DNA of 63,072 nucleotides, the filler included, from Stramenopiles sp. TOSAG23-3 (taxonomy: Eukaryota), in the NCBI GenBank assembly GCA_900128585.1. It is 12 parts of 12 records of this genome, joined end to end, with 100 filler letters (N's around TTAATTAATTAA, not from the genome) between each part and the next. Parts side by side here need not be neighbours in the genome. Positions count along the whole stretch, not along the records: positions 57,922 to 63,072 come from LT643598.1; 11 more parts are not named here. One strand, written 5' to 3'. Shown piece by piece: positions 5,281 through 63,072 of this stretch; within the stretch, counting starts at the first letter, position 1, and every line of letters starts with the position of its first letter. The notes beneath the pieces are model-generated. The model saw only the letters and a list, made by a program, of their open reading frames with translations. It searched no databases and was not told the DNA's origin. The position numbers were made by a program, and so were the translations under genes.

Positions 5281-5786
5281 GAACAAGACGAAGACTAAAA
5301 TAAAAAGAAAGAAAGAAAGAAAGAAAGAAAGAACCCTATTCATAACATTAATATAATACACCCACTTACCACCTACTCCTCTTTACCTCTTCTTGTATAG
5401 TTTTGTTTTATTATTATTTATTATTATTTATTATTATTATTAATTACTCCAACCCTCCTCCGATTACCATTGTAATAGGAAGAAGAAGAAGAAGAAGAAG
5501 AAGGAGAAGAAGATCGATGGATTGATTGATTGATCAACGAACACAGAGATTCTTCATTTTAGATATATATCAAATTCATACATAACGAAGTATTGCAAAC
5601 ACAACAACAACAACAACAACAAATCAATAATCTAAGAATATCTTTTATTATTCAATATTTAAGTGTTCTGTGTGTGTGTGTGTATATATATATACATAAA
5701 CCAAGGAAGGCCTTCCGTTTTTGGTAGAAACAGAATAGGTAGAGAACCACCCCCACCGCGCCGGGCCTCCCTCCCTCCCTCGCACC

Positions 5787-8132
5787 ATGGTCTACCCGCC
5801 CTACCGCGCGTCGACGGCTTCGAGCGCCGCCCGGCCGCGTTACGGTAGCGGAAGCAGCAGGGTCCGCGGGGCTGCCCCGAAGCAGGGCACCATTCGGGTC
5901 AAAAAGGTGGCCAAGTCCAGGTACACGCCCCGGGCCGCGTCGAGGGCGTCGGCGAGGCCGGTCGCCAAGGCCGCCCCACGGGCCCGGGCCTCCTCCCGGG
6001 CCTCCTCCCGACGGCACCCCTCCTCCTCGAAGGTCCCCCAGTTCTCCCGCAACCGGAACAAGGGGATGACGAAGTCGACGACTGTTGGACAGTACGTCGT
6101 CAGCAAGTCCATAGGCCAGGGAACGTTCGGGAAGGTCAAGCTGGGGATCCACACCATGACGTCCGAAAAGGTCGCGATCAAAGTCCTGCAGAAGAGCAAG
6201 ATAAAGGAGGCCGCGGACGTGGAGCGCGTGTCCCGGGAGATCGCCATCTTGAAGAAGGTCAACCACGACCAGGTCGTCCGCCTCTTCGAGGTTATCGACA
6301 CCCCCCAGGCGATCTACCTGATAATGGAGTTCTGCGAGGGGGGCGAGCTCTTCGACTACATCGTCAAGCACACCCGGATCAAGGAGACCGTTGCCGTCAA
6401 ATTTTTTCACCAGATCATCGACGGGATCGACTACCTGCACAAGACCCACGTCATCCACCGCGACTTGAAGCCCGAGAACCTCCTCATGCAGCGAAGGCCC
6501 GAGGGGTGGCACATCAAGGTCGTCGACTTTGGCCTGTCCAACACGGACGAAGGAAACCGCCTCCTGAAGACCGCGTGCGGGAGCCCGTGCTACGCCGCGC
6601 CGGAGATGATCGCCGGGAAGAAGTACAAGGGGCCCCTCGCGGACCTGTGGAGCGTGGGCGTCATCCTGTTCGCCATGGTCTGCGGGTACCTGCCCTTCGA
6701 GGACAACAACACGTCGCAACTGTACAAAAAAATACTCCGCGGGGCATACAAAGCCCCAAAGTTCATCTCCCCCCAGGTCAACGACCTCATCGCCCGAATC
6801 TTGAACACGGACCCGAACCACCGGTACACCGTCGCAGACATCCGGCGGCACCCCTGGATGCTCCAGAGCGCGGCCGCCAACGTCCGGGCGAACAAGCGCG
6901 CGGCCAAGGCGTCGGCGCCCGCCGCAGAGGCCGCGGGCGGCGCCGCCCCGGCCAGCAAGCCCAAAAAGGTCGCCGTCGTCAGCGGCGCCGTAGGGGCCAC
7001 CGTGACGGGAAGGCGCGGGGAGGCGGCAACTGCCGACGGTCGCCGGGCCCGCGACGACGCGCTCGCGAGCATAGACGAGACCGTCCTGCGGCAAATGGCC
7101 GACCTCGGCTTCAACGCCGCCCAGGTCATCGACAGCCTGGCCACGGGGAAGCACAACCAGATCACGACGGCGTACCAGCTTCTGGTCACCCGGAAGAAGA
7201 AGATTGCGGCGGCCAAGAAGAAGCTGCAGGAGGAGACCTTGGCGAAGGAGAGGGCCGCGGCCGCGGAGAAGGCGCGGAAGCTGAAAGAGCTGCAGGACGC
7301 CCAGAAGGCCAACCTGAAGGTCGTCGTCAAGCCCACGAAGCCCTTGCCCGCAGAGGCCCGCAGCGCAAAGTCCAGCGCGGTGCGGACCCCCACCAACCCC
7401 GTGAAGGCGGCCCCACCGCAGCGGCCCAAGGCGGGCCCGGCCGCGGGCTCCCCGAACCGTGTCAATAGTAATAGTATCAGCGGTGGCGCGCCCGGCAGCA
7501 ACCCCGCCGGCCGCGGGGGGCGGCGCATCGTCGGAGCGGCCCCGAAGCAAACGGGGGGGGTCCGCCCGGCCCCGCCCACCTCCAAGCCGCCGGCCAAGGA
7601 TTCGAAGGCCAAGTCGGTCGCGACGGCGGTCACTGGGACGTTGAAGCCCATCGCAGCCGGGTTCGGCGCAGCCCCGTCCCCCAAAGCCGCCGAGAAAGGG
7701 GCGAGGCCGTCCCCGCCGCCGGCGCGCCCGCCCCGCGTCGACGCGGGCGCGGCGAAGCAGGACAAGGTCAGCGCGCCGTCGTCCACGGGCCCGCAGGGCA
7801 AGGCCTACCCTACTGGGACGAGCACGAGCCCCGACCGCGAGGCCAATTTGAAGACGTTCCACGGGGTCTTCGACCCCCTGCACACGTCCACGAAAGACCC
7901 GACCGACATCTTTGGGGACATGAAGCGCGTCCTGGCGCTGAACCGGATTCCGTTCGCGGCGACCGGGGCCTACGCCATAACGTGCCAATCGAACGATTGT
8001 AGGTGGAAACTAGAAGTTTGTAAGCTGGAAGACGTGAAAAAGGTCTACGTTGTTCGTAGGCAGCGACTCGCGGGGGAAACGTACGCTTACGAAGTCATGA
8101 GCAAGCGAGTGATGGAGCAACTTCGGCTGTGA
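5787..8132 (+). CDS. SNF1/AMPK/MARK-related (CAMKL) Ser/Thr kinase with UBA-like and KA1 domains
   Basis: Kinase motifs GQGTFGKV, VAIK, HRDLKPEN, DFGLSN and TACGSPCYAAPE. UBA-like IDETVLRQMADLGF...HNQITTAYQLL. KA1-like C-terminus LEVCKL...RRQRLAGETYAY...EQLRL. Confidence 0.95.
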   Translation: MVYPPYRASTASSAARPRYGSGSSRVRGAAPKQGTIRVKKVAKSRYTPRAASRASARPVAKAAPRARASSRASSRRHPSSSKVPQFSRNRNKGMTKSTTVGQYVVSKSIGQGTFGKVKLGIHTMTSEKVAIKVLQKSKIKEAADVERVSREIAILKKVNHDQVVRLFEVIDTPQAIYLIMEFCEGGELFDYIVKHTRIKETVAVKFFHQIIDGIDYLHKTHVIHRDLKPENLLMQRRPEGWHIKVVDFGLSNTDEGNRLLKTACGSPCYAAPEMIAGKKYKGPLADLWSVGVILFAMVCGYLPFEDNNTSQLYKKILRGAYKAPKFISPQVNDLIARILNTDPNHRYTVADIRRHPWMLQSAAANVRANKRAAKASAPAAEAAGGAAPASKPKKVAVVSGAVGATVTGRRGEAATADGRRARDDALASIDETVLRQMADLGFNAAQVIDSLATGKHNQITTAYQLLVTRKKKIAAAKKKLQEETLAKERAAAAEKARKLKELQDAQKANLKVVVKPTKPLPAEARSAKSSAVRTPTNPVKAAPPQRPKAGPAAGSPNRVNSNSISGGAPGSNPAGRGGRRIVGAAPKQTGGVRPAPPTSKPPAKDSKAKSVATAVTGTLKPIAAGFGAAPSPKAAEKGARPSPPPARPPRVDAGAAKQDKVSAPSSTGPQGKAYPTGTSTSPDREANLKTFHGVFDPLHTSTKDPTDIFGDMKRVLALNRIPFAATGAYAITCQSNDCRWKLEVCKLEDVKKVYVVRRQRLAGETYAYEVMSKRVMEQLRL

Positions 8133-10457: not shown

Positions 10458-10557
10458 NNNNNNNNNNNNNNNNNNNNNNNNNNNNNNNNNNNNNNNNNNN
10501 NTTAATTAATTAANNNNNNNNNNNNNNNNNNNNNNNNNNNNNNNNNNNNNNNNNNNN

Positions 10558-13500
10558 TCCTCATATCTTGCAGGCTGAAGTTGGAAGTATCCTTCTGCGG
10601 TTTCCCATCACACCCAATCGATACAATTTCGTGGCCGTTGCGGATTTTTCCTGCTCGCGCAGCTGCCTTGCCAGGGGTAATTTCGGAAAGGAACGGGGCT
10701 GTGCCGGGCTTGCCGGGCTTGTCTATGACTTTGAATCCAAACCCATTCGAGGGACACGTAAAAGTTACCGAGTAAACAGAGACCTTTTCTTTGCCGTTGT
10801 TGAGCCATGTTTTCAATCGGTGTTTGCAGTACTCTGCGTACCGTTTGGCCCCTAACCACACCACGTCTTCACAAAAAATTAGCGCCAACCCAATGACGAA
10901 TACCGACACCGTAATTAAAATGATAGCCCACTCCATAAAGGCATCCTCGTATATTCGATGGTCGGAGTTATCGGTCTTGAGGATGAGGCCGCACAGAAGC
11001 GTCAGCACCAACTGCAAGCTCGAAAACGTTTGAAGCCAGTCGTCCGACTGGTCAAGGTATGGGGTTGACCTTGTCACGTTGAGGAGGTGAAAAAACCCGA
11101 CCAAGAACCCAGACAAGATTTGCGCCGAAGTTCCCTCTCGAAGCCACACCAGGCCGCCGGTCAACAGACACTTCCGGGCCATTTCAAATATTTCCCACCA
11201 CCACAAATGGTCTTCGTAACTTGCAAACAGGTCTTCCATTTGGATGCTAACGGACGCTTTGATCTCATCGCTATAGACGTACACGTGCTGCTTCGATTCG
11301 GCATCGAAAACCCTGGTTTCCCTTTTCTCAAAAGTGTAGAGGTGGGGTAGACACCCTTTGCGGCCTTCGTCCTTCTGGGTGTGCTCGTTCGTGTGAATAA
11401 GCCCCATGGAACCCCCTCGCTTAAACTTTAGAACATGATGGTGCTGCACTTCTGCACCCATTTCACGCTGCTGCTTGACCAACTTTCGTATCTCCAGGGC
11501 GTGGGCGTACTTTTGAAGAACTATTATTCTTCGGTAAGAGTCCACGGACTGTTCTTTGTAGTGTTTGACGACCGCTTGGAGTTTCCTGTCCTTGTCTTCG
11601 TTAATCGCTTCGATAACGTGACGGTACTTCCAGAGGCGCCAGTACATGACAGCAGGGATACCAAAAACGTAGAGGAAAATAAACAAAATCGCCCATGCCA
11701 CGGCATTGTCGTGCTCGACGGAAGCAAAACACTTCACGCTCATGTCGGCGACTAAATACAACTCTGGCCGGGGCGCGAACGTTCGGCATTGAAACACACG
11801 GAATACGCGCACAGTCAGACCAGGGTATGTAAAGAAGCAGAAGAGGAACACGTCCTTTATCAGGTAATCGACTAGCGTCCGCCACAGCTCTGATTTGCGA
11901 GATTTGCTTGCGTTTGCGGACCGGCGCATGTACACGATCGCCATAGCGACGATCTGTACGAGCACAAAGCATGGCGGTATCATCATGTGCGTGTAGAATG
12001 CAGTGAGAAACGAAACTTCCATGAAGCACGTGTTGATGCCATGAAAGATGGCCTCCAAGTCAATGTTCAAAAACGTAAACCACGCAAAAAAGTTTCGAAC
12101 TGCATTTGGCCACGGAACATCGAACGTTACGTCTAGGTAACTAACGATTTGAACGTACACGACCATTATTCGAAGCTTGTGCAGAATAGATCCTGCGCGT
12201 ATGCGATTCACCAGGTTTGATCGACCCAGTGCACCGGTATCTTCGACTGTGCTGTCAAGCTTTTCCATGGGGTTTTCGTCGTTAGAAGCAATGCCCTCGA
12301 GCATGTTTTCCGTTTGTTCTTCTTTTATCTCATCCGCAAGCTCTTCATTGATTGCTTTACAGGTGGGCTCGGTCCCCGAGTCCGCGCCGTCTTCTACGCC
12401 CCCCTTGGCTTCTGTGCCGCCCTCGGCTTTCTCTGCCGGGGGCTTCGTGATGTACATGAACCTACCAACCGAACAAAGAAAAATGAATACCACGATGAGC
12501 ACCCAGCCCATGCTAAACCAGGTCGCGTATTTTGAACTGGGGCAGGAGGTGCACCGGTAGTCGTCCCCTTGGCGAGTATAACCTTCTTCGCACACCGAGC
12601 AAAGTGGCCCCGTGTGAAACTCCCTGCACTGCGACTTGTTCAAAGCAATTCCTCCAACGCAGTCCGATTCTCTTGTGCAACGATGGAAAATGCCCGTTTC
12701 AAAATCAGTTCTCCATTGCCCGTTGCCCGATCGCATACCTTGAAGCGTGTTCCCTGCCCCCTCGCATGACCCCCCTTCGGGACACTTTGTGCAAACGCTT
12801 CCCGCTTCTTGCAAATTCAAAAAACTATCGTCCTGGCAAGGGCAAAGCAACGAATTCCATTCGCCAAGGTATTCCCTCTCGCCGCACCCCTTTGAAAGGA
12901 CCTTTAACTCAACGTTTTGGGAGGGGATACCATCGTACGCCCCACCGGCAGCACTGGATTCTACGCTGTGGTGAATTGTGCACGTGCTTACTGTGTTTTG
13001 GGTTGACACTGCATATATCTGTTTCGGGATTGGGGGCCACTGCAATCGGATTTGGATCCGCACGCTTTGCATTGACGCGTAATTCTCGGTAGAAAATTCC
13101 AGTAGCTGTGAATTTGCATGGACCGTGCAAAAAGAGTCGTTTGACATCACACTGACGCTCACGGCTCCAGACGGTGCCATCGCTGGGTCCAGTCGAATGT
13201 TGTACGAAAACTCGCTGCCATCGAATGATTCTGGCAGCTCTGGGAGTCCCATGATCTTCCCTTTGTCTACCAGGCGGCAGGCAGTTTCTCCCGTTTGGTT
13301 TCTGGTGTCCGAGCCGTTCTGGCACGCCATGCAGTCGTTCGCAGCTCCAACGTTGGGTTGATACTTTCCAACTGCGCACAATTTGCACGTGTTTGCCCCT
13401 TCGACATCGCTGTATGCACCGGGGTCGCACCGTTTGCAATCACAAAGGTACGATTGTGCGCTTTCCGTGCCGTACTTTCCGGCCGGGCAGTTAAGGCAGT

Positions 13501-14356
13501 GGGTGGAGGCGTACTTTTCGGCGTACTGCCCCGTTTCGCATTCCATGCAATTGTCTACGGATATATGATTCTGTGCCTGTTTGCCTTTGTCCGCAAGGTA
13601 AAACCCCGTTTCGCACGCTGCACAGTCGTTCCCTTCGTCGTGGGCAGTAGGGTCGGAACCAGGGTCAGAGAGGTACCGCCCCCCTGGGCACACGAAGCAG
13701 GACGCCAGCCCTGTCCCATTTGCAAACGTTCCCGCTTTACAAATGTCGCACGTTGTGCGGTTCTCTCGATCGCCGTACTTACCAGCAAGGCACTTGATGC
13801 AACTGAATTCTGCGGCTTGGTCGATTTGATCTTGGTATTTTCCGGCGGAACACGCCACCCTTGCGTCTGCCCCGCTGCAGTAATGCCCAAGTTCGCAGGT
13901 ACGGCACGACCCTGCGCTGGCCTGTCGAATTTGATCGCCGTACTTTCCTGGCGGACAGCCCTGTCTGAAGGCAACGCCACCGCAGTAGTACCCTTTTTCG
14001 CACACTACGCACGATTTATTGCTGGTCTGCCCCAACGACTTTTCCTGGTACAATCCTGGCACGCATGCGTCGCAGTCGTTGACATTGTCGTGAAGCGCGG
14101 GGTCGATCCCGTCGTCCGTGAGGTACATGCCATCCGGACATGAAGTGCAAACGTCAGTAGCGGTACGATTGGTGTATTTTCCAGCTTCGCAGACCTTGCA
14201 CGCGCTGGAACTGGACATTCCCGTTCTGTTGTTGTACTTTCCTACTGCGCAAAGGTATGGGCAGGTGGTCAGTTGAGAATTGGACTTGTTTTGAAAGCGC
14301 CCTGGCTCGCTCCTCAACAGATTATACAAGGCGAGAAAAGAAAGTAAGTGTTTCAT
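10558..14356 (-). CDS. 3'-partial multi-pass membrane protein: Cys-rich (ephrin-receptor-like/GCC2-GCC3) repeats, Ig-like domain, about 7-8 TM helices, C-terminal PDZ-like domain
   Basis: Repeated CxxCxxGxY units, then GPLCSVCEEGY, then a TM block with RIMVVYVQI, FDVPWP, YLVADMSVKC and WWWEIFEMARK. GFGF...ITPGKAAARAGKIRNGHEIVSI lies just before the gap. Confidence 0.85.
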
Positions 14357-26586: not shown

Positions 26587-27190
26587 TTGTTGTTGTTGTA
26601 AGAAAACGCGTTTCTATTATAAACTTATTTAACGTTCGAAAAAACGGAAATATCGTAAAACGTTGTGATTTTCAATCAATTGTATTGAATTGCTTACGAG
26701 TATACAACACATTTACCATTCTTCTTCATTTTAGCATTCAACAATTCAACATGCAACTACTCTACTTTTTAAAAAAAAAAATAGACAAAAAACCACCTCG
26801 TAATACTAATAATAATATAATAATAGAGACTAGCGTATTACGGTAATAAATAATATTAATATTAATGTACAATTTAAATCATCACATCATCATCATTCGA
26901 TAATACGAGAAATTTTTAAGAAGAAGAAAGAGGAGGGGGAGGAGGACGGCGATCGCGTCGTCGTATTATTATTATTATCTTTTTTTAAAAAGAGAAGCCG
27001 GAGGTGTCCTGCTTATTAGACCTCTTGTTATTGCATGGTTCTATTCAATGTATTTTAAGAAATAAAAAGGATTGGAGTTAGTTGAAAGACGAATCGTTTG
27101 ATTGTTCTGATTCATGAGTCAGGTATTTGATTTAAATCTCAAGGTTTTACTGTTTTGTTTGGAAGGAAAGTAATTGATAAGTTCACGAGG

Positions 27191-29434
27191 ATGATGCAGA
27201 CTTTGATACTGGCGTGGTGCTTCTTGATCGGCGTCTCCCTCGCGGACACGCGGGTCGTTACGATAGACAACACCAAGCCCCGCCTGGACGTGAACGGGGA
27301 CATTATCAACGCCCACGATGGTTCGTACCAAAAATATGGAGGGTATTACTACTACCATGCTGCAGAGTACGACTTATGCAAAGAGCCTTTGAAGAGAGGG
27401 TGCGACCGAGAAGTAAAACCAGACCCAGACTGTGGTTTTCGGGATGACCATAACGTCAGCATTTGGAGAAGCCAAGACCTTTCGTCCGGGAGTTGGGAAA
27501 AGTTGGGAACGGCCGTCGAGTGCCAAAAACTACCAGGGTGCGGTGTGTTGTACCGGCCCCATTTGGTGTTCAACCCAAACACAAAAAAGTACGTCCTATT
27601 CGTCAACTACGTTGGCAAGGGGCAGGGCGAAGGAAAAGAGTTGGGAGGGCGTTACAAAGGCTACGCTGTCTACAGTTCGGACTCACCGGCCGGTCCGTTT
27701 GCATTGGAGAATCCCGAAATGAACGTGACTCGCCTGTGTCCGGGCCCGGGCGCGCCCGGCCCTGATTGTGGAAAGTCCCAAGGCTCGTGCGGTGACTTTA
27801 CCATATTCGTCGACAAAAAAGATGGGCAAGGCTACATTATGTATGGGTGTAATTATTATATGGGCATTGAAATGCTCACAGACTCTTACTACCACTCCCT
27901 TGGCATTTCAGAGGGTAACAAAAACGCTACTGCGCCCGGGGGGTACTTCAACGGGAACCTCTTTCCGGACTACTTTGTCGAAGCGCCCGTTATGTTTGAG
28001 CGGGGAGGCATCTACTACACCATGTACGGCCACTGCTGCTGTTTTTGCTACCAAGGGAGCGGGATAATTGTGTACACCGCAACTTCGCCAATGGGCCCAT
28101 GGAAAGAGAGCGGTGGCAATCTTGCCTGTGTTCCGCCGGGAGAGGTTACAATGCCTACGTCTGCCCTTGGCGTAAAAGGGGCACCAACCCCGGGGCAAGG
28201 GTGCCTGTACAATGGATCAGACTATGTATCGACTACGAAGGCACAGCAAAATTTCGTCATTGAAGTTCCGAACGCTTCGGGTGAGTCTACGTTTGTTTGG
28301 ACCGGTGATCTCTGGCAACAAGCGCCAGATGGTATCAAAGGCCACGAAGGGCAGTTTTGGTCTCCCTTGAAATTCGACAAAATGGGCCGAATAGGGAAGG
28401 TAAAGCACATATCTTCCTTCAAAATCGAGATCGAAGCTGACGGATTTCCAGTCTATTGGAATGTCGACGAAAACACAAGCCCTGCAATCGACGTAACTAA
28501 GTACGGCTTCCTTGCTCGAAATTACACACAAGTTGGAGGAGGGTGCACCACACCAGGATGCAAATCTTGGTCGCAAGGGGTTTGGCCTACTTTGTCAAGT
28601 TCAGGCAAAATTGTCAACGGGGGGGTGCCACAAAATGGGAATTTGGAATTACACTTGAACACTATTGCAAAGACGTTGCCATTGTGGATTCCAGATTCAG
28701 AATGGGACGGGAACGCTGTTTTGGATTTTGAGGCGTGGACAACCGTATGGGACTTCAACGAAGGGCAAGGCGACTGGCATTCGAAGCGCTACCAAAATTA
28801 CAGCATTGAAATCGTCAAAGCAAAGCACCCAACATGGTCACCTGCGAAGATTGTCGAAGCGGCAAAAGCAGAGTTTGAGTCTGCAGCAACCAATTGGTTT
28901 GTAAAGACGTTAGAAACCTGCAAAAAACTGCGGCCGAAGGCGAAGTGGGGCTTTTACGGTCTCCCGCTCAACGACGCAAATTGCTCGTCTGACGTTTGTG
29001 GGTATGACTTGCCCGGCCCTGCTGGAGAAAAGTTACGAAATTATTCCGATCAGCAAAACCCAATTTGGGAAGCATCGACTGCGCTGTACCCTTCCATATA
29101 CATTCCTACTCCAATGCAAGGGGAAGATGAGAGAGCAAGGGCGTACGTTCATTCTACTGTGAAAGAGTCCCTAAGGTGCGCAAGCAACCAGCCTGGGCCA
29201 ACCCGCCCTGTGTATCCCTACGGATGGGACCATTACCACGATGGGCTTCATGTTTTAAGCACCGATGCTTTGAAGAGTCAGTTGGAGGTGCCATGCTCCT
29301 TGGGCGCAGCCGGTCTGGTCGAATGGGGAGATTCAAAACAGGCGACGAACAAATCATACTGGGAATGGTTTGTGAGTAAGGATGGGAGTGGGACAATCAC
29401 AAAGAATTTTATTTGCGACAGAAACGATTCTTAA
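27191..29434 (+). CDS. Secreted two-domain glycoside hydrolase: GH43 beta-propeller fused to a GH56 hyaluronidase-like TIM barrel
   Basis: GH43 part: NGDIINAHDG, LYRPH, GDF, VEAPVMF, KAQQNF, WTGDLW. GH56 part from about 28442: FPVYWNV, NGGVPQNGNLELHL, AVLDFEAW, AKAEFESAA, LRPKAKWGFYGLP, WEASTALYPSIY, GAAGLVEWG. Confidence 0.88.
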   Translation: MMQTLILAWCFLIGVSLADTRVVTIDNTKPRLDVNGDIINAHDGSYQKYGGYYYYHAAEYDLCKEPLKRGCDREVKPDPDCGFRDDHNVSIWRSQDLSSGSWEKLGTAVECQKLPGCGVLYRPHLVFNPNTKKYVLFVNYVGKGQGEGKELGGRYKGYAVYSSDSPAGPFALENPEMNVTRLCPGPGAPGPDCGKSQGSCGDFTIFVDKKDGQGYIMYGCNYYMGIEMLTDSYYHSLGISEGNKNATAPGGYFNGNLFPDYFVEAPVMFERGGIYYTMYGHCCCFCYQGSGIIVYTATSPMGPWKESGGNLACVPPGEVTMPTSALGVKGAPTPGQGCLYNGSDYVSTTKAQQNFVIEVPNASGESTFVWTGDLWQQAPDGIKGHEGQFWSPLKFDKMGRIGKVKHISSFKIEIEADGFPVYWNVDENTSPAIDVTKYGFLARNYTQVGGGCTTPGCKSWSQGVWPTLSSSGKIVNGGVPQNGNLELHLNTIAKTLPLWIPDSEWDGNAVLDFEAWTTVWDFNEGQGDWHSKRYQNYSIEIVKAKHPTWSPAKIVEAAKAEFESAATNWFVKTLETCKKLRPKAKWGFYGLPLNDANCSSDVCGYDLPGPAGEKLRNYSDQQNPIWEASTALYPSIYIPTPMQGEDERARAYVHSTVKESLRCASNQPGPTRPVYPYGWDHYHDGLHVLSTDALKSQLEVPCSLGAAGLVEWGDSKQATNKSYWEWFVSKDGSGTITKNFICDRNDS

Positions 29435-38961: not shown

Positions 38962-40048
38962 TTATAGTGCCTTAGGCATTTGAAAGTCCTGGGGCCTGCC
39001 GTTGACAATTTTGTAGTTTCCGTGGTCATGTGTGAAGGATACGCCATAATTAGCCTGAACATAGGCAGCATCGCACTTGTACAGCTGAGGGTAAAGCAAG
39101 ATGCAGTTTTCGATTTATTGTTGTTAGCGAGTCTGTCGTGGAGAAGGAAAGACTGGGCATCAGTGGGGGGTAGGGGTACTTACTTCTTCGAGAGAGATTG
39201 ACCCGCTAGCGTCAACGTCGTACAGCCGTGCGGCGTGCTGAAGCTTTTCTGGCAAGGAGCTAACAAGGACGTGGTCCTTTAAAGCCCCAGGCTCAACACT
39301 TTCATGCACAATGGTATTGATCCCGGCCGCCTTGAGCTCGTTTATAATTTGGTGGGAATGCAACCATTGGACGCCTGTGTATTGCCCCACATCGTGCTGA
39401 CGCTTCAGTATTTCTAGGCAGACATCGGATCCTTCGACTTTGGGGTAACTGAGCCAATGCGCATGGTCTTCGCTGTGGGCCCCAATCTTGGCGTCCCGCT
39501 TGGTCTCCTCAGTCCCCCAAGTTATGAGCGTGGCGACGCACCTGGCGTTGCCGTTATGGGTGTTGAAAACGATCGGCGTCATCCCTTTCGTTAATTCCCT
39601 TTGTTCTATGCCATTGTGTCCACTGAGCAGAAGCAATGCAACGACCCTGCCGTCGCTTGCTACATGAAGGCCGTTCTGTCCAGTTCTGCGGTAGGGGAAG
39701 AGGGAGAGTAAAGGCGGGAGCGTTAGCTAGAGTGTGGAAAGCATGAGGGCGACGGGCATCGGTTACTTACTGTGGGTGGCTCCAGCTAACGTATTTGATG
39801 AACTCTTCGTCTGAGGAACAGTACTTTCGCAAGAGCTTCAAGATCACCATCGTCTCCTTGTACCCCCTTTTGCACGCCTCCCAAAGCATGGTCGTATGGT
39901 GGTCCGGATCGGGATCAATGATAATCCTGGGGTTCAGCTGAATGCAGCGATCCGCTGCCCGATCGAGGTCGGACGTACCGCCATGAGCGCCGGCCATCAT
40001 TACACTATGATGAAGCCCTCGGCTTGCTGCTGACGATCCTGCTCCCAT
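38962..40048 (-). CDS. Three-exon gene (40048-39771, 39685-39184, 39084-38962): N-myristoylation-like start, ankyrin repeats, EF-hand
   Basis: Starts MGAGSS. Ankyrin-like TMLWEACKRG and, after splicing, HPQTGQNGLHVA. Splicing completes a canonical EF-hand YDVDASGSISLEE|L. The last exon reads LYKCDAAY...MPKAL*. Confidence 0.85.
39085..39183 (-). other. Spliceosomal intron, 99 nt, phase 0
   Basis: GTAAGTACCC...GCTAAC...CCTCAG on the minus strand. It contains in-frame stops, and its removal completes the EF-hand. Confidence 0.85.
39686..39770 (-). other. Spliceosomal intron, 85 nt, phase 2
   Basis: GTAAGTAACC...GCTAAC...CCGCAG on the minus strand; removal joins two ORFs in frame. Confidence 0.9.
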
Positions 40049-44614: not shown

Positions 44615-46375
44615 TTAGTCCATCAGGCCGTCGTAAGACACGACGCTCTCCATGGCGTTGTCCATGACCCCCCCACCGGAAGAAAGCAGCGTTTCGCCGG
44701 CCCCGTCCAGCGCTGGCTCCCGCCGGTACTTCCTCGGTGTCAAGCATGGGCACCCAGTGCATGATTTTCCCAGGACCAAGAAATACGCCAACAACCAGCA
44801 CACGATGGCCCACGTCAGCCATAGCGTCGTCAGCGACATGGTCAGCCTTGGGTCGTGAAAACTGTCCGTAATTTTCCCGATCGCGATGGGGGACGGGACG
44901 TCCCCGAGTGCGTGGATGAACATGACGCTCAGCCCGATAGACATGGCCTGATTTTCCTTGGGCACCGCCCATAGCAGGACCCCATTCACGCCTGCGGTCG
45001 TGGTGAAAAGTAAGAAGCACCCTAACGCGATCCCTGCAAAAAATATGGGAGGCTTAGAGGACTGCACGGCAAGCACGCACACGGGCATCGCAATGAAAAT
45101 TTCGGCGGAGATCTGCAGCAGCGCGATCCGGCAGAGCTCCAAGCGCCTCGCGCTGCCGAGGGAGCTGACCTCCTCTGGGTTCACCGAGTCGGGCGCCGTT
45201 TTCCCTTTGAAATGATCTAAAATTTTCCCCCCCGCAACTGTCCCAAGAAGCCCCGTGGCCGCCACGATGCTGCCGAATATTTTGTCCGAGTCCAGCTGAG
45301 AGAAGTTCCACTCGTTGACGCAGTGGTCGGACGGGTCAGGGTGAATGCCACACGGGTTGTTTGTCTGCAGAAACTTTGGGGCGTAAAATGCGAACCCTGC
45401 CACCGTGGCTGTGTACGCGGCGTAGCCAAAACAGACACACAGGTAGATTGGGTTCGCAAGGAGCGATCGGATCTCTTGCCAGGCGCCCTTCACGGCCGGC
45501 TCGTCCTCCCCAACCATCATTTCCAGCGATTCGTCGCTGTCCGCGGATTGGGCCGCCTCGGGGCGAACGTCCACCGCGGGTTTCGGGTTACCGGTCAAGT
45601 TCAGGAAGAGAAAGGCAAAGGGCAGCATTAACGGTACTTCGAACAGAAACGCCCACTTCCAACTGTACAGTCTGGATATAAGTCCCCCCCATATAAACCC
45701 GAGGGCAGTACCGACCGGGATGGCACTAAAGTAGATGGCAAGGTACAGGCCAATGGACCTGCGCTCCACGACCTCATCCAAAATGGGAACCGAAATGGTG
45801 GCAAACGACGCTTCCCCGACGCCGCTGAGTATTCGCGCAAAGACCAACAGGTAAAAGGCACTGCATTGCTCCTCGCTCGGGTTGGCCATCGCCGCCTGCT
45901 GTGACTCGCACAAAATTCCGGACAAACCGCAGAGCAAAACGGCGAGGGTCCAGATCAGCAGGCCGACGCCCATGAGGCGAAACTTTGAAAAACGGTGCAC
46001 GGCGTTGCCAAAGAACAGTGCCGCCAAGGAGTACCCGATCATGAACGAGGCCTGGACCATACCTAGCTTTGTAGTGCCGATGGCAAACCCAAGCTGGCGA
46101 ATTTCATGGCTCTTTTCGTCGCACTGGTCCCCGCACGTCGCGACTGACTCGCAGTGGTGGCCGCACAGTGGGCACCGAACGCACCAGTCGGACGGCAAGG
46201 TCTGGTTCTTCACCAGCTTGGGGCAGTACTTCTGTTCGTCGTACACGCAGCCCTGAATGGACGTTCCGGCCCCAGGAATGATCCCCCGGTCGACATAATT
46301 AATAAAGTTAACAACGGTGAACAAAAATAGTGCAGTCTTTGGGGTCAATATTTTCTTGGCATCGCACGCAGGCAT
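44615..46375 (-). CDS. Spinster-family MFS transporter
   Basis: VNFINYVDRGII, ARILSGVGEASF, AIPVGTALGFIWGG and IHALGDVPSP. About 12 TM helices. Confidence 0.92.
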   Translation of the reverse strand: MPACDAKKILTPKTALFLFTVVNFINYVDRGIIPGAGTSIQGCVYDEQKYCPKLVKNQTLPSDWCVRCPLCGHHCESVATCGDQCDEKSHEIRQLGFAIGTTKLGMVQASFMIGYSLAALFFGNAVHRFSKFRLMGVGLLIWTLAVLLCGLSGILCESQQAAMANPSEEQCSAFYLLVFARILSGVGEASFATISVPILDEVVERRSIGLYLAIYFSAIPVGTALGFIWGGLISRLYSWKWAFLFEVPLMLPFAFLFLNLTGNPKPAVDVRPEAAQSADSDESLEMMVGEDEPAVKGAWQEIRSLLANPIYLCVCFGYAAYTATVAGFAFYAPKFLQTNNPCGIHPDPSDHCVNEWNFSQLDSDKIFGSIVAATGLLGTVAGGKILDHFKGKTAPDSVNPEEVSSLGSARRLELCRIALLQISAEIFIAMPVCVLAVQSSKPPIFFAGIALGCFLLFTTTAGVNGVLLWAVPKENQAMSIGLSVMFIHALGDVPSPIAIGKITDSFHDPRLTMSLTTLWLTWAIVCWLLAYFLVLGKSCTGCPCLTPRKYRREPALDGAGETLLSSGGGVMDNAMESVVSYDGLMD

Positions 46376-57921: not shown

Positions 57922-60900
57922 ACGAAATGATCGGCGTGCTACAATTGATCAACAAATTGCACGGCGTCTTCAACGACGACGACATAGACATTATGAAGGA
58001 ATACTGTGCGATGATTTCGACGAGAATGTTATTCGACGATATGGAGGTAGGCGACGGGTCGTTTGGAGGGCCGGAGAAATTTGTAAACAATTGGAAACGT
58101 CAGCGATCGGAGCAGTTTGCGAAGGCAAAAAAGTATTTTAAGTTTTTACATGTTATTGTTGCAAATGCAAAGGAATTAGTTTATGCCACCGACGGCGCGT
58201 TGTTCTTGATGGATGAAGAAAAGGACGAACTTTGGGCAAAACTAGAAGAGGGGGAAGTGCCTAAGCGGGTTTCGATTGGCCATGGGATTGTCGGCATGGC
58301 GGGGAAACATAGAAAATCATTTCTTATTTCTGATACAACGACAGATACGGACTTTTTCAGAGGGGATGAAATTTACAAGACTGGAACGCGTTCAATGATT
58401 GTTGTTCCCGTAGTGAGCACCTCACTGGTTGGTGTCATCGTGTGCCGCAATAAATCGGGGGGGGCGTTTTCGAAATCCGATGTAGCCCTGATGCAGGAAT
58501 TTACTTCGTTTTTGAAAGATAAAGTTCACTTTAATGACATAGACCACGCAAACATTTCGGGTTACGAGGCGCAGGTCAATATGTGGAAACATTCGCGAAC
58601 TGTAGAAGCGGAAAATACCAAACTTCGGTACGACTACCTTCACAATATTTTAAATGAATGTAGAGATTTTCTAGGTGTGGACAGAGCATCTATTTTGTAC
58701 GCCAAAGACGACCGACAGCTAGAAGCACCGACTATGTTAGGGGAATCAGCCTTTGTCATTGCGTTTGGGGAGGGGCTGCTGGGAAAAGTGGCAGTAGACC
58801 AGGAGGCATCTTTTACGAACGACACGAGCCAGAATCGGATGTACAGTTTTCGCTACGATGTGAAGTATGGGTACCAGACCGACGAACTTCTTGTGGCCCC
58901 TATTCTTTCCAAAGATTCAAAGACACTCGCCGTACTGCGATGCGCTAACAAGGTATTGGGAAAGTTTGTACAATCAGACGTCGAAACCATTGCATCCTTC
59001 GCAAAATTCATCGCCCCATACATTCACTATAAAGACATTCACCTTGAAGACATAGCGGACATTATGAAACGAATAAGTGGATGGAAACTTATCCAAGGCG
59101 ATGAACGCGCAGCAATTACAAACCGGCAGTACGCAGCGTCAAAACTAAACACAATAAAGCGAAGGATAGATCAGAACATGTTGTACAGGGCATTTATGCG
59201 GTTTAGGTTGTACGGATCAAAAGCAGAAAACAAAGCGATTGAAAGAAAGGTGATTGAGTTGAAAGAACGATTGGAGACGGAAACGGTCGATGCCTCAACG
59301 CTTCAAGAAACATTGGACGCTTTAAGATCCAGTACAGACAATACAATAGCCGAGCAGGCCGCAGCAAACGAGAAATTAAAGCGTCATTACGAAACTGAAA
59401 TAACGAACCTTCGCCAAACCCAACAGCAGCATCTAGACTCCCTGTCCGAGCAAGTCAGCGCATCCGCGGCCGAAAGGGAGTTGGAGAGTACGTCTAAAAT
59501 GAAGGAGTACCAATCGAAAATGAAGTCTCTGAAATCAGCCCATGCTGAAACCGTCGTCTCGCTGGAAGCCCAACAGAAAGCCCTTATACAAAAGCACAGA
59601 AAATTATCCGGTGATCTAAGATCTTCCTTCGAGAGGAAAATTACTGCTTTACAAAATGAACTCACAACCAAGACAGAAGAATCGTCAGCAAGAAGCTTGG
59701 AGTTGCTCGGAAACAAAGACGTTGAATATCAAGCCATGGAACACCAGTACAAGAGTCAAATTGACAAACTCAAATCCAATTTCCAAGACACGTTGACCAG
59801 GCAGTCGGCACACAACGATGAATTGCTAAAACGGAAAGATCGGGAGTACAAAGATTTAAAGCAAGACATGCAACGGCAGCTTGAAAAGCAAAAAACTAAT
59901 CACAATGATATAATGCAAATGGTGGAGGAGCAGGGGAAGCTTGCCCTGAAAAACAACGATAAAAAATTAGATGAGCTCACAACTCACTACGAAGCAAAAT
60001 TGAAAGCGCTAAGCCAGTCACTCACGGACCAGGAGGCGTTGTCAGCTGCCCAGTCTGACATGACCATACAAAGACACCAGCAGAGCTTGGATGATTCCGA
60101 ACGGCAACTAAACAACAAGCTCAAGTTGATGAAAAAAGCACACGACGCTGCAATGAAAGCAGAGCAGGGCAAAATAGAAGCCTTAAAGGCCGTGATTCAT
60201 GAATTGGAGAGTAAGTTGACGCAAGAGCACCAACACGCGGAAGACATCATTTTGGAAGGAGACAAGAAAGAACAATTGCTTCTTAAAACGTTCAAGGTTG
60301 CAGAAGCGACATGGAAGCGGGAATGGCGAGATAAGGAATCCGGCATTCGCGCCAATCATGGGGCAGAAACAACCCGACTGTGCAATGTTATTGACACCCA
60401 ATCCACCGAGATTGACCAGCTGAAGGCCTCAATTCAAGAATATGCGGCAGACTACAAACAACAACTCGCGGAGAAAGAAGCAACCCTTACCGAGCTGCAC
60501 ATTATGGAAATGGCTTCCGTTCGAACGGCGCATGACCAAAAGCTAACCGAAATGGAATCCCAAAAGCAAGTGGCAGCGGAGAACTCAGAAATACAAATGA
60601 AAAATGCCGAACGGGTATGGCAGGCTACGCTTTCGCAAAAGGTGAATGCTGAACATGACCGTTATGAAAGTGAGATTGGAGACTTGAAGCTTGAACATCA
60701 ACAATCTGTATACGCGCTAAAGGAAAAATTGAATGGACTTACTACATCATTGAAATCACTTCAAGAGTCGTCAAAGGCAACACTAGGTTCTGTTCAGGCA
60801 CAACACAAGCATGAGATTGAGGCGATAACATCACATCATGAGCATGTTTTGACAAACAAACTTGCGGAGGGTATGTTGAAAACGAAAAGTGATTGCAAGA

Positions 60901-63072
60901 ACGAAATTATGCAGATGCAAGAACGGCATGAAACAGAGATCTCTAACTTAATTACGAAACATACCAAACATGTACTTGGGCTGGAGGAAATTCATGTTGC
61001 TCGCACGGAAAAAGCGGTGGCTAACATTCGCCAAAACGTATCCAACAGTTATGAACAGCAGATTGCATCCCTGACCCTAAGCCTGACACAACTAAGAAAC
61101 CACCAAGAGCTGCACCAAGCAGATTACGTAGACCAGGTCTCTAAACTATCCCAAGAAGTGCTACGCTTACAAAACGCGTTAGAAAAAGAACAGCACGAAC
61201 GCGAGAGCCTTGTGCGGGAGCACACATCGGCATTATTTTCGATAGAAGAAGCGCACAGGGTTAGTCGCGAAGAGTTGCGCACAGAGCACCAACGCGCCAT
61301 AGACGTGTCTGTCAGTCGTGCAGTTGAAAAAGTCCGTGTTGGCGAAAAGCGCTTACGGGACGAAATCGAAAATCAGCGAAATCGAGAACACAGTCATTTC
61401 ACGGAAAAAATGGAGACTTTGATCGTCGCACACGAGCATGAAATGCTAAACGTAAAAGCACTGCATTCGAAAGAGGTTCAACAACGAGAAAGTAGGCTGC
61501 AATCACTGAAAGAGTCGGCTATTAAACAGCTACAGGACGACAACGAAATGAATGCGCGAATAGAAATCGAAACCTTGAAAGCAAAGTATGAGGAGCAACT
61601 AGAACATCTACGAGGGCAACTGATTGATTCAAATCGTAAAATGGAGTTGACCATCCAAACACACGCCCAACAAAAGGCAGACGATTCGCGGCGGCATCAG
61701 ATGGCACTACGAGAAGCCGATGAAGTGAGGATAGAAGCAATAAACGCAACTGTGAACAAAAAAGACCAGCAGTTTGAAGAAATGCTCTATTTGGAAAAAC
61801 GAAAGTGGGAAAAACACTCCAGACTTGATGTGCAAACTAGAAGCAAAGATCACAATGATGAGATCCTTTCGTTGAAAAAGACGAGCCAGAACGAAATCCT
61901 AAATCTAGAAAATGCGCTATCGGAAATGATAGCACTGCATACCACCAATATGGACAAACAACATAATCACAACATAAAATACTCACGAACAGTCCGCAGT
62001 TTCATCGCGCGTTCTAGAAGCCAGATTAGCCATTATCTTTGCAGTCTTATGTTTCATCAGTGGAAGGGTAACGCGACTCAAAAGAAACATATGCGTGTCA
62101 AACTAAAACAAGCCGCTAACCGCCTTTTAATTACAAACCGAAGGTTGGCAATTCAAAAGTGGTTCAAATCAACCAGTTTCGAGGGTAAAAAGAAGTCCAT
62201 TTTATGGCGTATGACACTTGCCTTGAGGCGGAAATGTTTAGGGTTAGGATACAATACATGGAAGTGCTGCGTTTTGCGGCAGCGGAAGATTGACATATTT
62301 CGGTCTGCGTGCGTTCGGCATGCGCTGTCATGCTTGAAGTCCGAGACATTTGGCAAATGGAAACATATGCTAAAGGCCAACCGCCTTAGACATGTGGCAA
62401 GTAATGTCATCGAACGGGTAGCTACCACAAATGTGACATTTTCTAAACAGTTAACACTGCACCGTTGGCTGCTGCACATTGCAAAAAAATGTCATGCCAA
62501 ATCACGTTTAAAAAACCTAGTTTCAAGGGCACTGTTCTATAAAGCACAATTACCGTTTCAACATTGGCGCAGCGTGACGAAACGAAAGCGTCGATTGTTC
62601 CAGTTAACGCGGCATTTAATGCTCCGATTACAGCGGAAATTGGGACGCGAAACCTTCCAATGTTGGGCCACCAATGTAAGAAGTATTTCCCAGCAGCGGT
62701 CGGTGGTAAGACGTTTGACAGTCCAATTTCATAACCGATCAAAGTCTTACATATTTCGTTGCTGGCACAAAAACGTGAACAAACGACTCGGGACTCGTAA
62801 ACTGTTTTCTCGTGTCTTTTCCCGTCTTAGTTTGTTCCACCAAAAAGATGCATTTATTATTTGGAATGATTATGCTAGGTTATCTCGCAGCACGAACAAG
62901 TTAATGGCACGAATTGCGCTCCGTATGAAGGGGGCTACGTCACTATATGCATTCGAAACGTGGTACCATAATGCCAGTGAAATACGTCGTCAGCGCGGTG
63001 TTATGGCTCGTATTCGGTTTCGCATGAAATCAAGGGCGGCAGTAGCGGCGTTCAACAATTGGTGCGCCTTTG
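57922..63072 (+). CDS. Both-ends-partial giant protein (>1700 aa): tandem GAF domains, long coiled coil, Sfi1-like 33-aa Trp repeats
   Basis: The frame starting at 57924 reads EMIGVLQLINKLHGVFNDDD at the contig start and AVAAFNNWCAF at the end. The ORF track lists no terminated ORF in this frame, which implies it has no stop. Confidence 0.88.

Follow-up and report, generated by a model that had tools for sequence, protein, structure and literature searches.

A Long Open Reading Frame of a Widespread Marine Eukaryote Joins a GAF Array, a Helical Rod and 33-Residue Trp Repeats of a Broad Sfi1-like Family

The sequence analyzed here is a 63,072-base window of the Stramenopiles sp. TOSAG23-3 assembly (GCA_900128585.1), which consists of 12 pieces of approximately 5.2 kb each with 22 runs of N44, paired around TTAATTAATTAA, as spacers. 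These pieces are separate contigs, so that features located on different pieces are not neighbours. The present text concerns the last contig (57922..63072, + strand, 5151 nt), which is occupied over its whole length by a single open frame (57924-63071) truncated on both the 5' and 3' sides. Translation of 57927..63071 (+) gave an open reading frame (ORF) of 1715 amino acids (aa) whose 3' end is open, no stop codon being present in this translation, and the frame is also open upstream to 57924, the first complete codon. The initial annotation had described a frame of approximately 1716 codons running through the whole contig, which agrees with the 1715 codons counted without a stop. Residues are numbered hereafter from the ATG at 57927. 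The translated protein carries, in this order and in one continuous frame, a row of GAF domains, a long proline-free rod, and a strongly basic tail of Trp repeats. This contig is a piece of a real and much longer gene, which belongs to a widespread marine eukaryote.

A Pfam search of the 1715-aa protein matched the GAF family (PF01590) in two stretches with an E-value of 6.7e-21 and 75.6 bits (gathering cut-off 22.4), and GAF_2 and GAF_3 were also matched. The best of the two stretches corresponds to a unit denoted b (58143..58511, + strand, aa 73-195), which contains the motif NK..F...D at aa 175, and the second to a unit c (58638..59030, + strand, approximately aa 238-368) with the same motif at aa 341. 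The contig start truncates a further unit a, of which only the C-terminal end is present (57924..58031, + strand), with NK..F...D at aa 9-19; b and c both align at their ends with the first 57 residues of the protein. Units b and c themselves align over approximately 180 residues, linker included, and NK-x5-F-x3-D is encountered with a 166-aa period, at aa 9, 175 and 341. Hence, Pfam, alignment and motif all place two full units and the end of a third where three GAF-type signatures had been claimed. When the GAF region was searched against PDB by sequence, all 15 matches were GAF proteins. The tandem GAF of CyaB2 was the best (1.3e-10), GAF-B of the phosphodiesterase (PDE) PDE10A (2zmf) aligned over aa 74-205 (E 1.2e-7), GAF-A chains of PDE6 and PDE5 aligned over aa 259-373, and PDE2A was also among the matches. 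An AlphaFold2 (AF2) model of aa 40-400 submitted to Foldseek returned the tandem GAFs of CyaB2, PDE5A, PDE2A and PDE6 at the top, with E-values of 2e-13 to 1e-9, the value for 1ykd being 2e-13. Furthermore, the six longer GAF relatives comprise five GAF-GAF-(PAS)-adenylate cyclases together with a single eukaryotic GAF-GAF-phosphodiesterase. The units thus clearly appear, from sequence and predicted fold, to belong to the cyclic-nucleotide-type tandem-GAF lineage (PDE/CyaB). Other searches gave little: a whole-protein word-index search, which is an insensitive method, found one bacterial PAS/GAF kinase covering 8%, and the same insensitive method found nothing for the GAF region among near-length proteins. 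For the GAF region, one match over 29 residues at 52% identity was obtained among JGI metagenome contigs, and the ESM Atlas returned bacterial GAF clusters, which serve as leads only. As a side observation, the linker after each GAF unit carries [V/I]-x-x-W-K (58083-58097, 58575-58589 and 59073-59087), with Trp at aa 56, 220 and 386, approximately 165 aa apart. It has a formal resemblance to the [F/L]xxW[K/R] core of centrin-binding repeats, and may be nothing more than a segment of the helix between GAF units.

Relevant to ligand binding is the five-residue NKFDE motif, which marks GAF domains that bind cyclic nucleotide monophosphates (cNMP) according to passages of PMC11977230 and PMC4411481. 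All three units of the present protein retain N, K, F and D, whereas I, V and V, respectively, stand in place of E. This replacement weighs against a sensing head, as does the account in PMC11977230, again from a part of that source, that mutation of each NKFDE residue in GAF-B of PDE2 abolished binding of cyclic guanosine monophosphate (cGMP). The only moderate confidence of the AF2 model (predicted local distance difference test, pLDDT, 63) counts against the fibre scaffold proposed below. The cyclic-nucleotide character attributed to the GAF units in the initial annotation hence holds for their lineage, as judged from PDB, Foldseek and the relatives, but not for the complete motif. It is accordingly quite conceivable, at somewhat less than an even chance, that the protein is a scaffold without a sensor, whose GAF array has lost ligand binding and acts only as a dimerising or anchoring head. 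The loss of E in every unit agrees with such a head, and so does the finding that no catalytic output domain was identified by Pfam in the visible 1715 aa. GAF tandems of PDEs and CyaB2 also dimerise, which is a further point in its favour. It is opposed by the retention of N, K, F and D in three units that have low identity to each other, and by the fact that the closest relatives are cNMP-regulated enzymes. A non-sensing GAF head is compatible with the fibre scaffold proposed below.

The GAF units are followed by a proline-free acidic helical rod of approximately 950 aa (59094..61961, + strand), which was characterized by its lack of Pro, net charge, hydrophobic period and a heptad test. The 910 residues of aa 431-1340 contain no Pro, 12.9% Glu and 11% Leu, have a net charge of -22, and exhibit their strongest hydrophobic periods at 3.61-3.67. 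No Pfam family was matched by the rod. Occupancy of the heptad a/d positions is modestly above that of shuffled sequences (z 3.5), and an occupancy of 6/8 is reached in 14% of 28-residue windows, so this heptad signal of a coiled coil is weak. The coiled coil of approximately 900 aa described in the initial annotation is retained as probable and only partly supported: the proline-free, Glu- and Leu-rich composition and the helical period agree with it, whereas the heptad excess is only modest. When aa 440-800 were paired with themselves in a complex prediction, the scores were 0.00 and 0.03 (mark 0.32), values that are uninformative either way on pairing. The rod is also unusually rich in His, with 44 of 910 aa (4.8%) located at 59220-61946, often every 10-50 residues beside acidic residues.

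The C-terminal part of the protein consists of 11 diverged 33-residue Trp repeats with one spacing of 36 (61974..63071, + strand), which are strongly basic and Sfi1-like. Their Trp codons are located at 62061, 62160, 62259, 62358, 62466, 62565, 62664, 62763, 62862, 62961 and 63060. All of these had been listed in the initial annotation, and one extra Trp at 62205 had not. Nine Trp pairs are exactly 33 residues apart, while 20000 shuffles of the last 375 residues gave a mean of 0.32 and a maximum of 4 such pairs; the proposed 33-aa spacing with one 36 is hence present, and its count was never reached by the shuffles. The residue at position -3 to Trp is F in 8 of the 11 repeats and L, I and Y in one each, so that [F/L]X2W occurs in 9 of 11. 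Arg occupies position -17 in 63% of this protein's repeats and position -13 in 54%. The net charge over aa 1341-1715 (375 residues) is +76, and aa 1350-1715 contain a single Pro. AF2 modeling of 267 tail residues with 30 aligned sequences generated two helices (2-123 and 126-266) at a pLDDT of 73, from which the tail is predicted to be a nearly unbroken helix. These results are in line with the earlier description of mostly FxxW motifs in basic helices. The 11 repeats are mutually 9-24% identical, and no tandem or direct repeat was detected at the DNA level within 61800-63072; they are old and diverged.

Relatives of the tail were collected by a full HMMER pass over 1.84 billion representative proteins using the translation of 61890-63071 as a query. 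This gave 101 relatives at E <= 1e-3, of which 16 were at <= 1e-10 and 2 at <= 1e-30. Reversed and shuffled copies of the 101 relatives scored at most 8.5 and 4.3 bits, respectively, and none of them reached 35, the minimum of the native sequences. This indicates that the matches are not a composition effect. In 78 of the 101 relatives, no Trp spacing occurs more often than 33, and at least three adjacent Trp pairs at 33 occur in 81. The consensus of 1530 repeats taken from these relatives is R(-22), R(-17), R(-13), M/L(-12), L(-7), A(-4), F(-3) and W, and 62% of these repeats have L, V, I or M at position -7. Two relatives, P0025 and P0093, pass the Pfam Sfi1 family (PF08457) with 25.1 and 27.6 bits at a cut-off of 22, and P0025 aligns with the present tail at 64.7 bits. 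The tail is, by these sequence comparisons, a member of a large 33-residue Trp-repeat family that overlaps Pfam Sfi1. In the ESM Atlas, it fell near unnamed clusters (0.92, 0.90 and 0.89), and Ciliophora were commonest in the 0.89 cluster, which again are leads only. Several relatives carry other domains together with the repeats, namely calpain (P0017 and P0097), ankyrin (P0010 and P0041), PDZ (P0060) and Sel1 (P0047), as well as a C-terminal EF-hand in P0067. This suggests that the 33-aa Trp-repeat tail is a reusable docking tail, or an address tag.

Membership in Sfi1 proper was examined against the published consensus AX7LLX3[F/L]X2W[K/R], as given in a part of PMC2173958 and restated in PMC5112337. 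The same part of PMC2173958 describes human SFI1 as nine 33-mers, one 35-mer, nine 33-mers, one 37-mer and three 33-mers. Of the features expected, the spacing of conserved Trp by 23-36 residues is found here (11 Trp at 33, with one 36), and so is a proline-poor continuous α-helix, judging from the AF2 model and the single Pro in aa 1350-1715. The consensus itself is only partly kept by the tail, and a series of results weighs against an Sfi1 assignment. The residue after Trp is K/R in 4 of 11 repeats and H in one, and at position -7, where the Sfi1 consensus has Leu, most repeats of this protein lack a hydrophobic residue. PF08457 was not matched by the protein or by its tail even at E <= 10, and only 2 of the 101 relatives pass it. 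Scans with the Kilmartin patterns, namely AX12[F/L]X2W[K/R/H] and the double pattern, gave no match in the protein. A sequence search of the tail against PDB found one chance match (E 0.96) and no Sfi1 chain, and a profile of the 11 repeats likewise found no Sfi1 chain in PDB, only a chance bL20 at E > 3. Since its features stand on both sides, the tail is assigned to a broad Sfi1-like family and not regarded as an Sfi1 orthologue. The Sfi1-like repeats of the initial annotation are upheld in this broad sense by the 33-aa period, F at -3, the helix and the two relatives that pass Pfam Sfi1, but the tail's own Pfam and pattern tests gave nothing.

This mixed outcome bears on the partner of the tail. 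With the same architecture, the tail might dock a partner other than centrin, e.g., a calmodulin-like protein, a different EF-hand protein or an acidic surface like that of tubulin tails, or it might be purely structural. We regard this as unlikely, though it deserves attention: the strict Sfi1 patterns are unmet with K/R at +1 in a minority, 99 of the 101 relatives share the lack of a Pfam Sfi1 match, and acidic partners of any kind would be accommodated by the net charge of +76 over 375 aa. On the other hand, the 33-aa Trp period, F at -3 and the proline-poor helix are centrin-binding features in the descriptions found in parts of PMC2173958 and PMC5112337, and the Pfam Sfi1 matches of P0025 and P0093 also argue for centrin. 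Loading of one centrin per repeat, by an Sfi1-like working of the tail, would be the most likely arrangement.

Continuity of the contig was evaluated with independent metagenomes. All or part of the stretch is contained in 20 datasets from 12 studies, nearly all of which are marine metagenomes; the organism that carries this gene is hence widespread in the sea. Contigs of four metagenome runs (X1-X4, where X1 is the likely source of the present contig and X2 comes from another study) were compared with 57922-63072, and independent contigs matched at >= 99% identity. Contigs of X2 contain 57922-59029, reaching 604 nt further upstream, and 59148-62984. The junction between the GAF units and the rod is bridged by X3 (58846-59734, 2 differences) and X4 (58881-59787, 1 difference), and that between the rod and the repeats by X1 (59186-62984), X2 (59148-62984) and X3 (61055-62672). 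Because contigs from independent marine metagenomes bridge both junctions, the fusion is real. An in-frame stop or a chimeric join between the GAF units and the repeats had been named as the point to look for, and neither was encountered. That the assembly fused a GAF gene to an unrelated repeat gene is in our judgment very improbable. Such a fusion could be suspected from X1, in which a depth of about 5 gives way to one of 24 near 59126, 58954-59125 is left without a contig, and one contig joins pieces in opposite orientation. However, the X3 and X4 contigs, from two other studies, cross 59126 with only 1-2 differences, and X2 contains the sequence on both sides; the X3 and X4 bridges outweigh the depth jump and the inverted join. 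Bins left uncovered in single runs (X1 58954-59125; X4 58610-58781 and 61878-62049) carry no evidential weight. The metagenome contigs, whose marking as DNA is a guess, showed no interruption; the gene therefore probably lacks introns across these 5.1 kb.

Both ends of the contig were found to lie in repeats. At the 3' end, 62955..63072 (+) is the start of a near-identical multi-copy unit of 297 nt (3 x 33 aa), recognized from depth and contig returns, and forms the assembly break point. Its depth is 2.3 to 4.9 times that of neighbouring bins in all four runs, and contigs of X2 and X4 return to 62955 after 118 + 179 = 297 nt, which corresponds to three 33-residue repeats. The relative P0007 shows 67% identity with the last two repeats and then continues with further repeats. 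Since the contig ends where this multi-copy unit starts, the repeat tail continues past the contig. The best relative, P0003 (2155 aa), mirrors the 297-nt unit in that several 33-aa units are combined there into higher-order repeats, which recur nearly exactly within the first 700 residues. At the 5' end, contigs of X1, X3 and X4 share 57922-58000 and then diverge, and the diverging path at 58000 weakly resembles the matching part of another GAF unit, as read from a hand-translated 30-nt consensus. With both ends in repeats, the true protein is larger at its N- and C-terminus. The extension of the contig by other reads that had been suggested at the outset was achieved upstream, by the 604 nt of X2.

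The combination of a GAF array, a rod and 33-aa Trp repeats was sought among the relatives and in the literature. No Pfam GAF domain was present in any of the 101 tail relatives, and phmmer with the GAF region as a query detected none of them at E <= 10. Conversely, all six long GAF relatives have a cyclase or PDE domain instead of a Trp-repeat tail. Within open-licence and bioRxiv full texts, a query for Sfi1 with GAF domain found only unrelated iRFP imaging in fission yeast, one for GAF domain with centrin found nothing, and one for Sfi1 repeats with calpain or ankyrin found nothing relevant among the papers listed. The combination is thus undescribed within the searches made. The initial annotation had likewise not known this architecture, in keeping with its absence from the 101 tail relatives, the six GAF relatives and the literature searched.

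The same relatives raise the matter of an enzymatic activity. No cyclase or phosphodiesterase family was matched by Pfam after the GAF units in the visible 1715 aa, of a protein that ends beyond the contig, and a catalytic domain (cyclase, phosphodiesterase or other) might be located beyond the contig ends. The product would then be a signalling enzyme tethered to the cytoskeleton and not a pure scaffold. The cyclase or PDE domain of all six long GAF relatives would lead one to expect this, and at least 604 nt more exist upstream in X2. The tail relatives too have enzymatic or interaction heads (calpain and ankyrin two each; PDZ, Sel1 and EF-hand one each). Nevertheless, PDEs and CyaB-type cyclases have their catalytic domain after the GAFs, where the present protein has its rod, and the branch at 58000 looks GAF-like and not like a new domain, although the 30-nt consensus makes this a weak point. 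A catalytic domain beyond the ends is accordingly quite improbable.

The architecture is that of a modular fibrous protein composed of at least three GAF units, a rod of approximately 950 aa, and a basic helix with at least 11 Trp repeats. Like Sfi1, its tail would carry a centrin-type EF-hand protein on each repeat, and the centrin-loaded tail would form the backbone of a Ca2+-responsive fibre. A role in spacing or pairing may fall to the rod, and the GAF array could, more tentatively, be a regulatory or dimerising head. Such a head might bind a cyclic nucleotide or another small ligand and couple this signal to the assembly or anchoring of the fibre, which we also propose only tentatively. 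A fibre scaffold of this kind, in which centrin-type EF-hand proteins are lined up on the Trp-repeat helix, with the rod as a spacer and the GAF array as a regulatory or dimerising head, is considered moderately probable. Two further observations are unfavourable to it: the contig covers neither end of the protein, and RNA datasets contain shares of only 0.07-0.11 of the stretch. A fully ligand-gated centrin fibre, whose GAF units would sense cNMP or another ligand and control through the rod the assembly, anchoring or contraction of an Sfi1-type rail, is rather improbable. To assign the scaffold to a flagellar root or a feeding apparatus would be entirely conjectural.

Centrin fibres as different as those of the spindle pole bodies of yeast and the ultrafast ciliate myonemes have Sfi1-type proteins as their backbones. 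To our knowledge, what has been described of the regulation of such fibres largely concerns Ca2+. An Sfi1-type member with a row of cyclic-nucleotide-type sensors would link second-messenger signalling to centrin structures in a testable manner. If the ligand-gated fibre were true, cyclic-nucleotide signalling would be wired directly into the Ca2+-driven contractile cytoskeleton of an abundant marine protist. More broadly, the 33-aa Trp tails would in that case represent a general docking module that places GAF, calpain, ankyrin, PDZ and Sel1 heads on centrin structures. The reuse of the repeat tail under different heads is a second point of interest.

The other pieces of the window contain long eukaryote-type genes and, being separate contigs, are informative only on the kind of organism. 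They encode a MARK-like kinase with KA1, a GH56 hyaluronidase, an OATP transporter and MORN repeats, and further an ataxin-10 domain, S-adenosylmethionine synthetase, an Ephrin_rec_like protein and sortilin/VPS10 domains. The GH56 hyaluronidase (27155-29434), the OATP transporter (44615-46375) and the Ephrin_rec_like protein (10502-14356) are animal-like in content, a hint that the marine protist may be holozoan-like or unusual in some other way. The gene for the MARK-like kinase with its KA1 domain (5787-8132, + strand) reaches a guanine-cytosine (GC) content of 66% at 6001-8000 within an AT-richer contig. Long antisense ORFs run across it (5652-7988, - strand), for which the high GC is the most likely cause. 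When the window was searched for EF-hand-loop patterns, one match was obtained, at the end of a 188-codon open frame (39160-39726, - strand), which may be an exon of an EF-hand protein; it was considered as a centrin and rejected, as it is not one. No centrin ORF was found by this pattern search within the 63,072 bases.

Three known systems come closest to the present protein. With Sfi1 (yeast Sfi1p and human SFI1), it shares the conserved Trp, F/L at -3, a period of 33 residues in which a longer unit appears now and then, and a continuous helix poor in proline, and two of its tail relatives pass PF08457. It differs from Sfi1 in lacking a Pfam Sfi1 match, in keeping the consensus only in part with no match to the published patterns, and in bearing a GAF array and a rod of approximately 950 aa ahead of the repeats, which are absent from the descriptions of Sfi1 in the available part of PMC2173958. 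Multi-member families of Sfi1-repeat proteins are described for protists in portions of PMC5112337 and 10.1101/2025.08.11.669701, including Sfr1-13 of Tetrahymena and the giant ciliate scaffolds PtCenBP1, Stentor Sfi1 and Spirostomum GSBP. According to the same portions, these proteins are long and helical with many Trp repeats, and organise centrin fibres and basal-body structures. The present protein resembles them in its long helical build and its many Trp repeats. It is distinguished by its GAF head, which does not figure in those descriptions, and from Stentor Sfi1 by its period of 33, as the Stentor repeats are separated by 46-residue gaps in the consulted portion of 10.1101/2025.08.11.669701. 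The third system consists of the tandem GAFs of PDE2, 5, 6, 10 and 11 together with CyaB1 and CyaB2, which provide the best sequence and fold matches and have in common with the present units the tandem order, the helical linkers and the N, K, F and D residues. Unlike these tandems, however, the present array has at least three units at a 166-aa period with E of NKFDE replaced throughout, and its GAF units are followed, in place of a cyclase or PDE domain, by a rod and a tail of Trp repeats.

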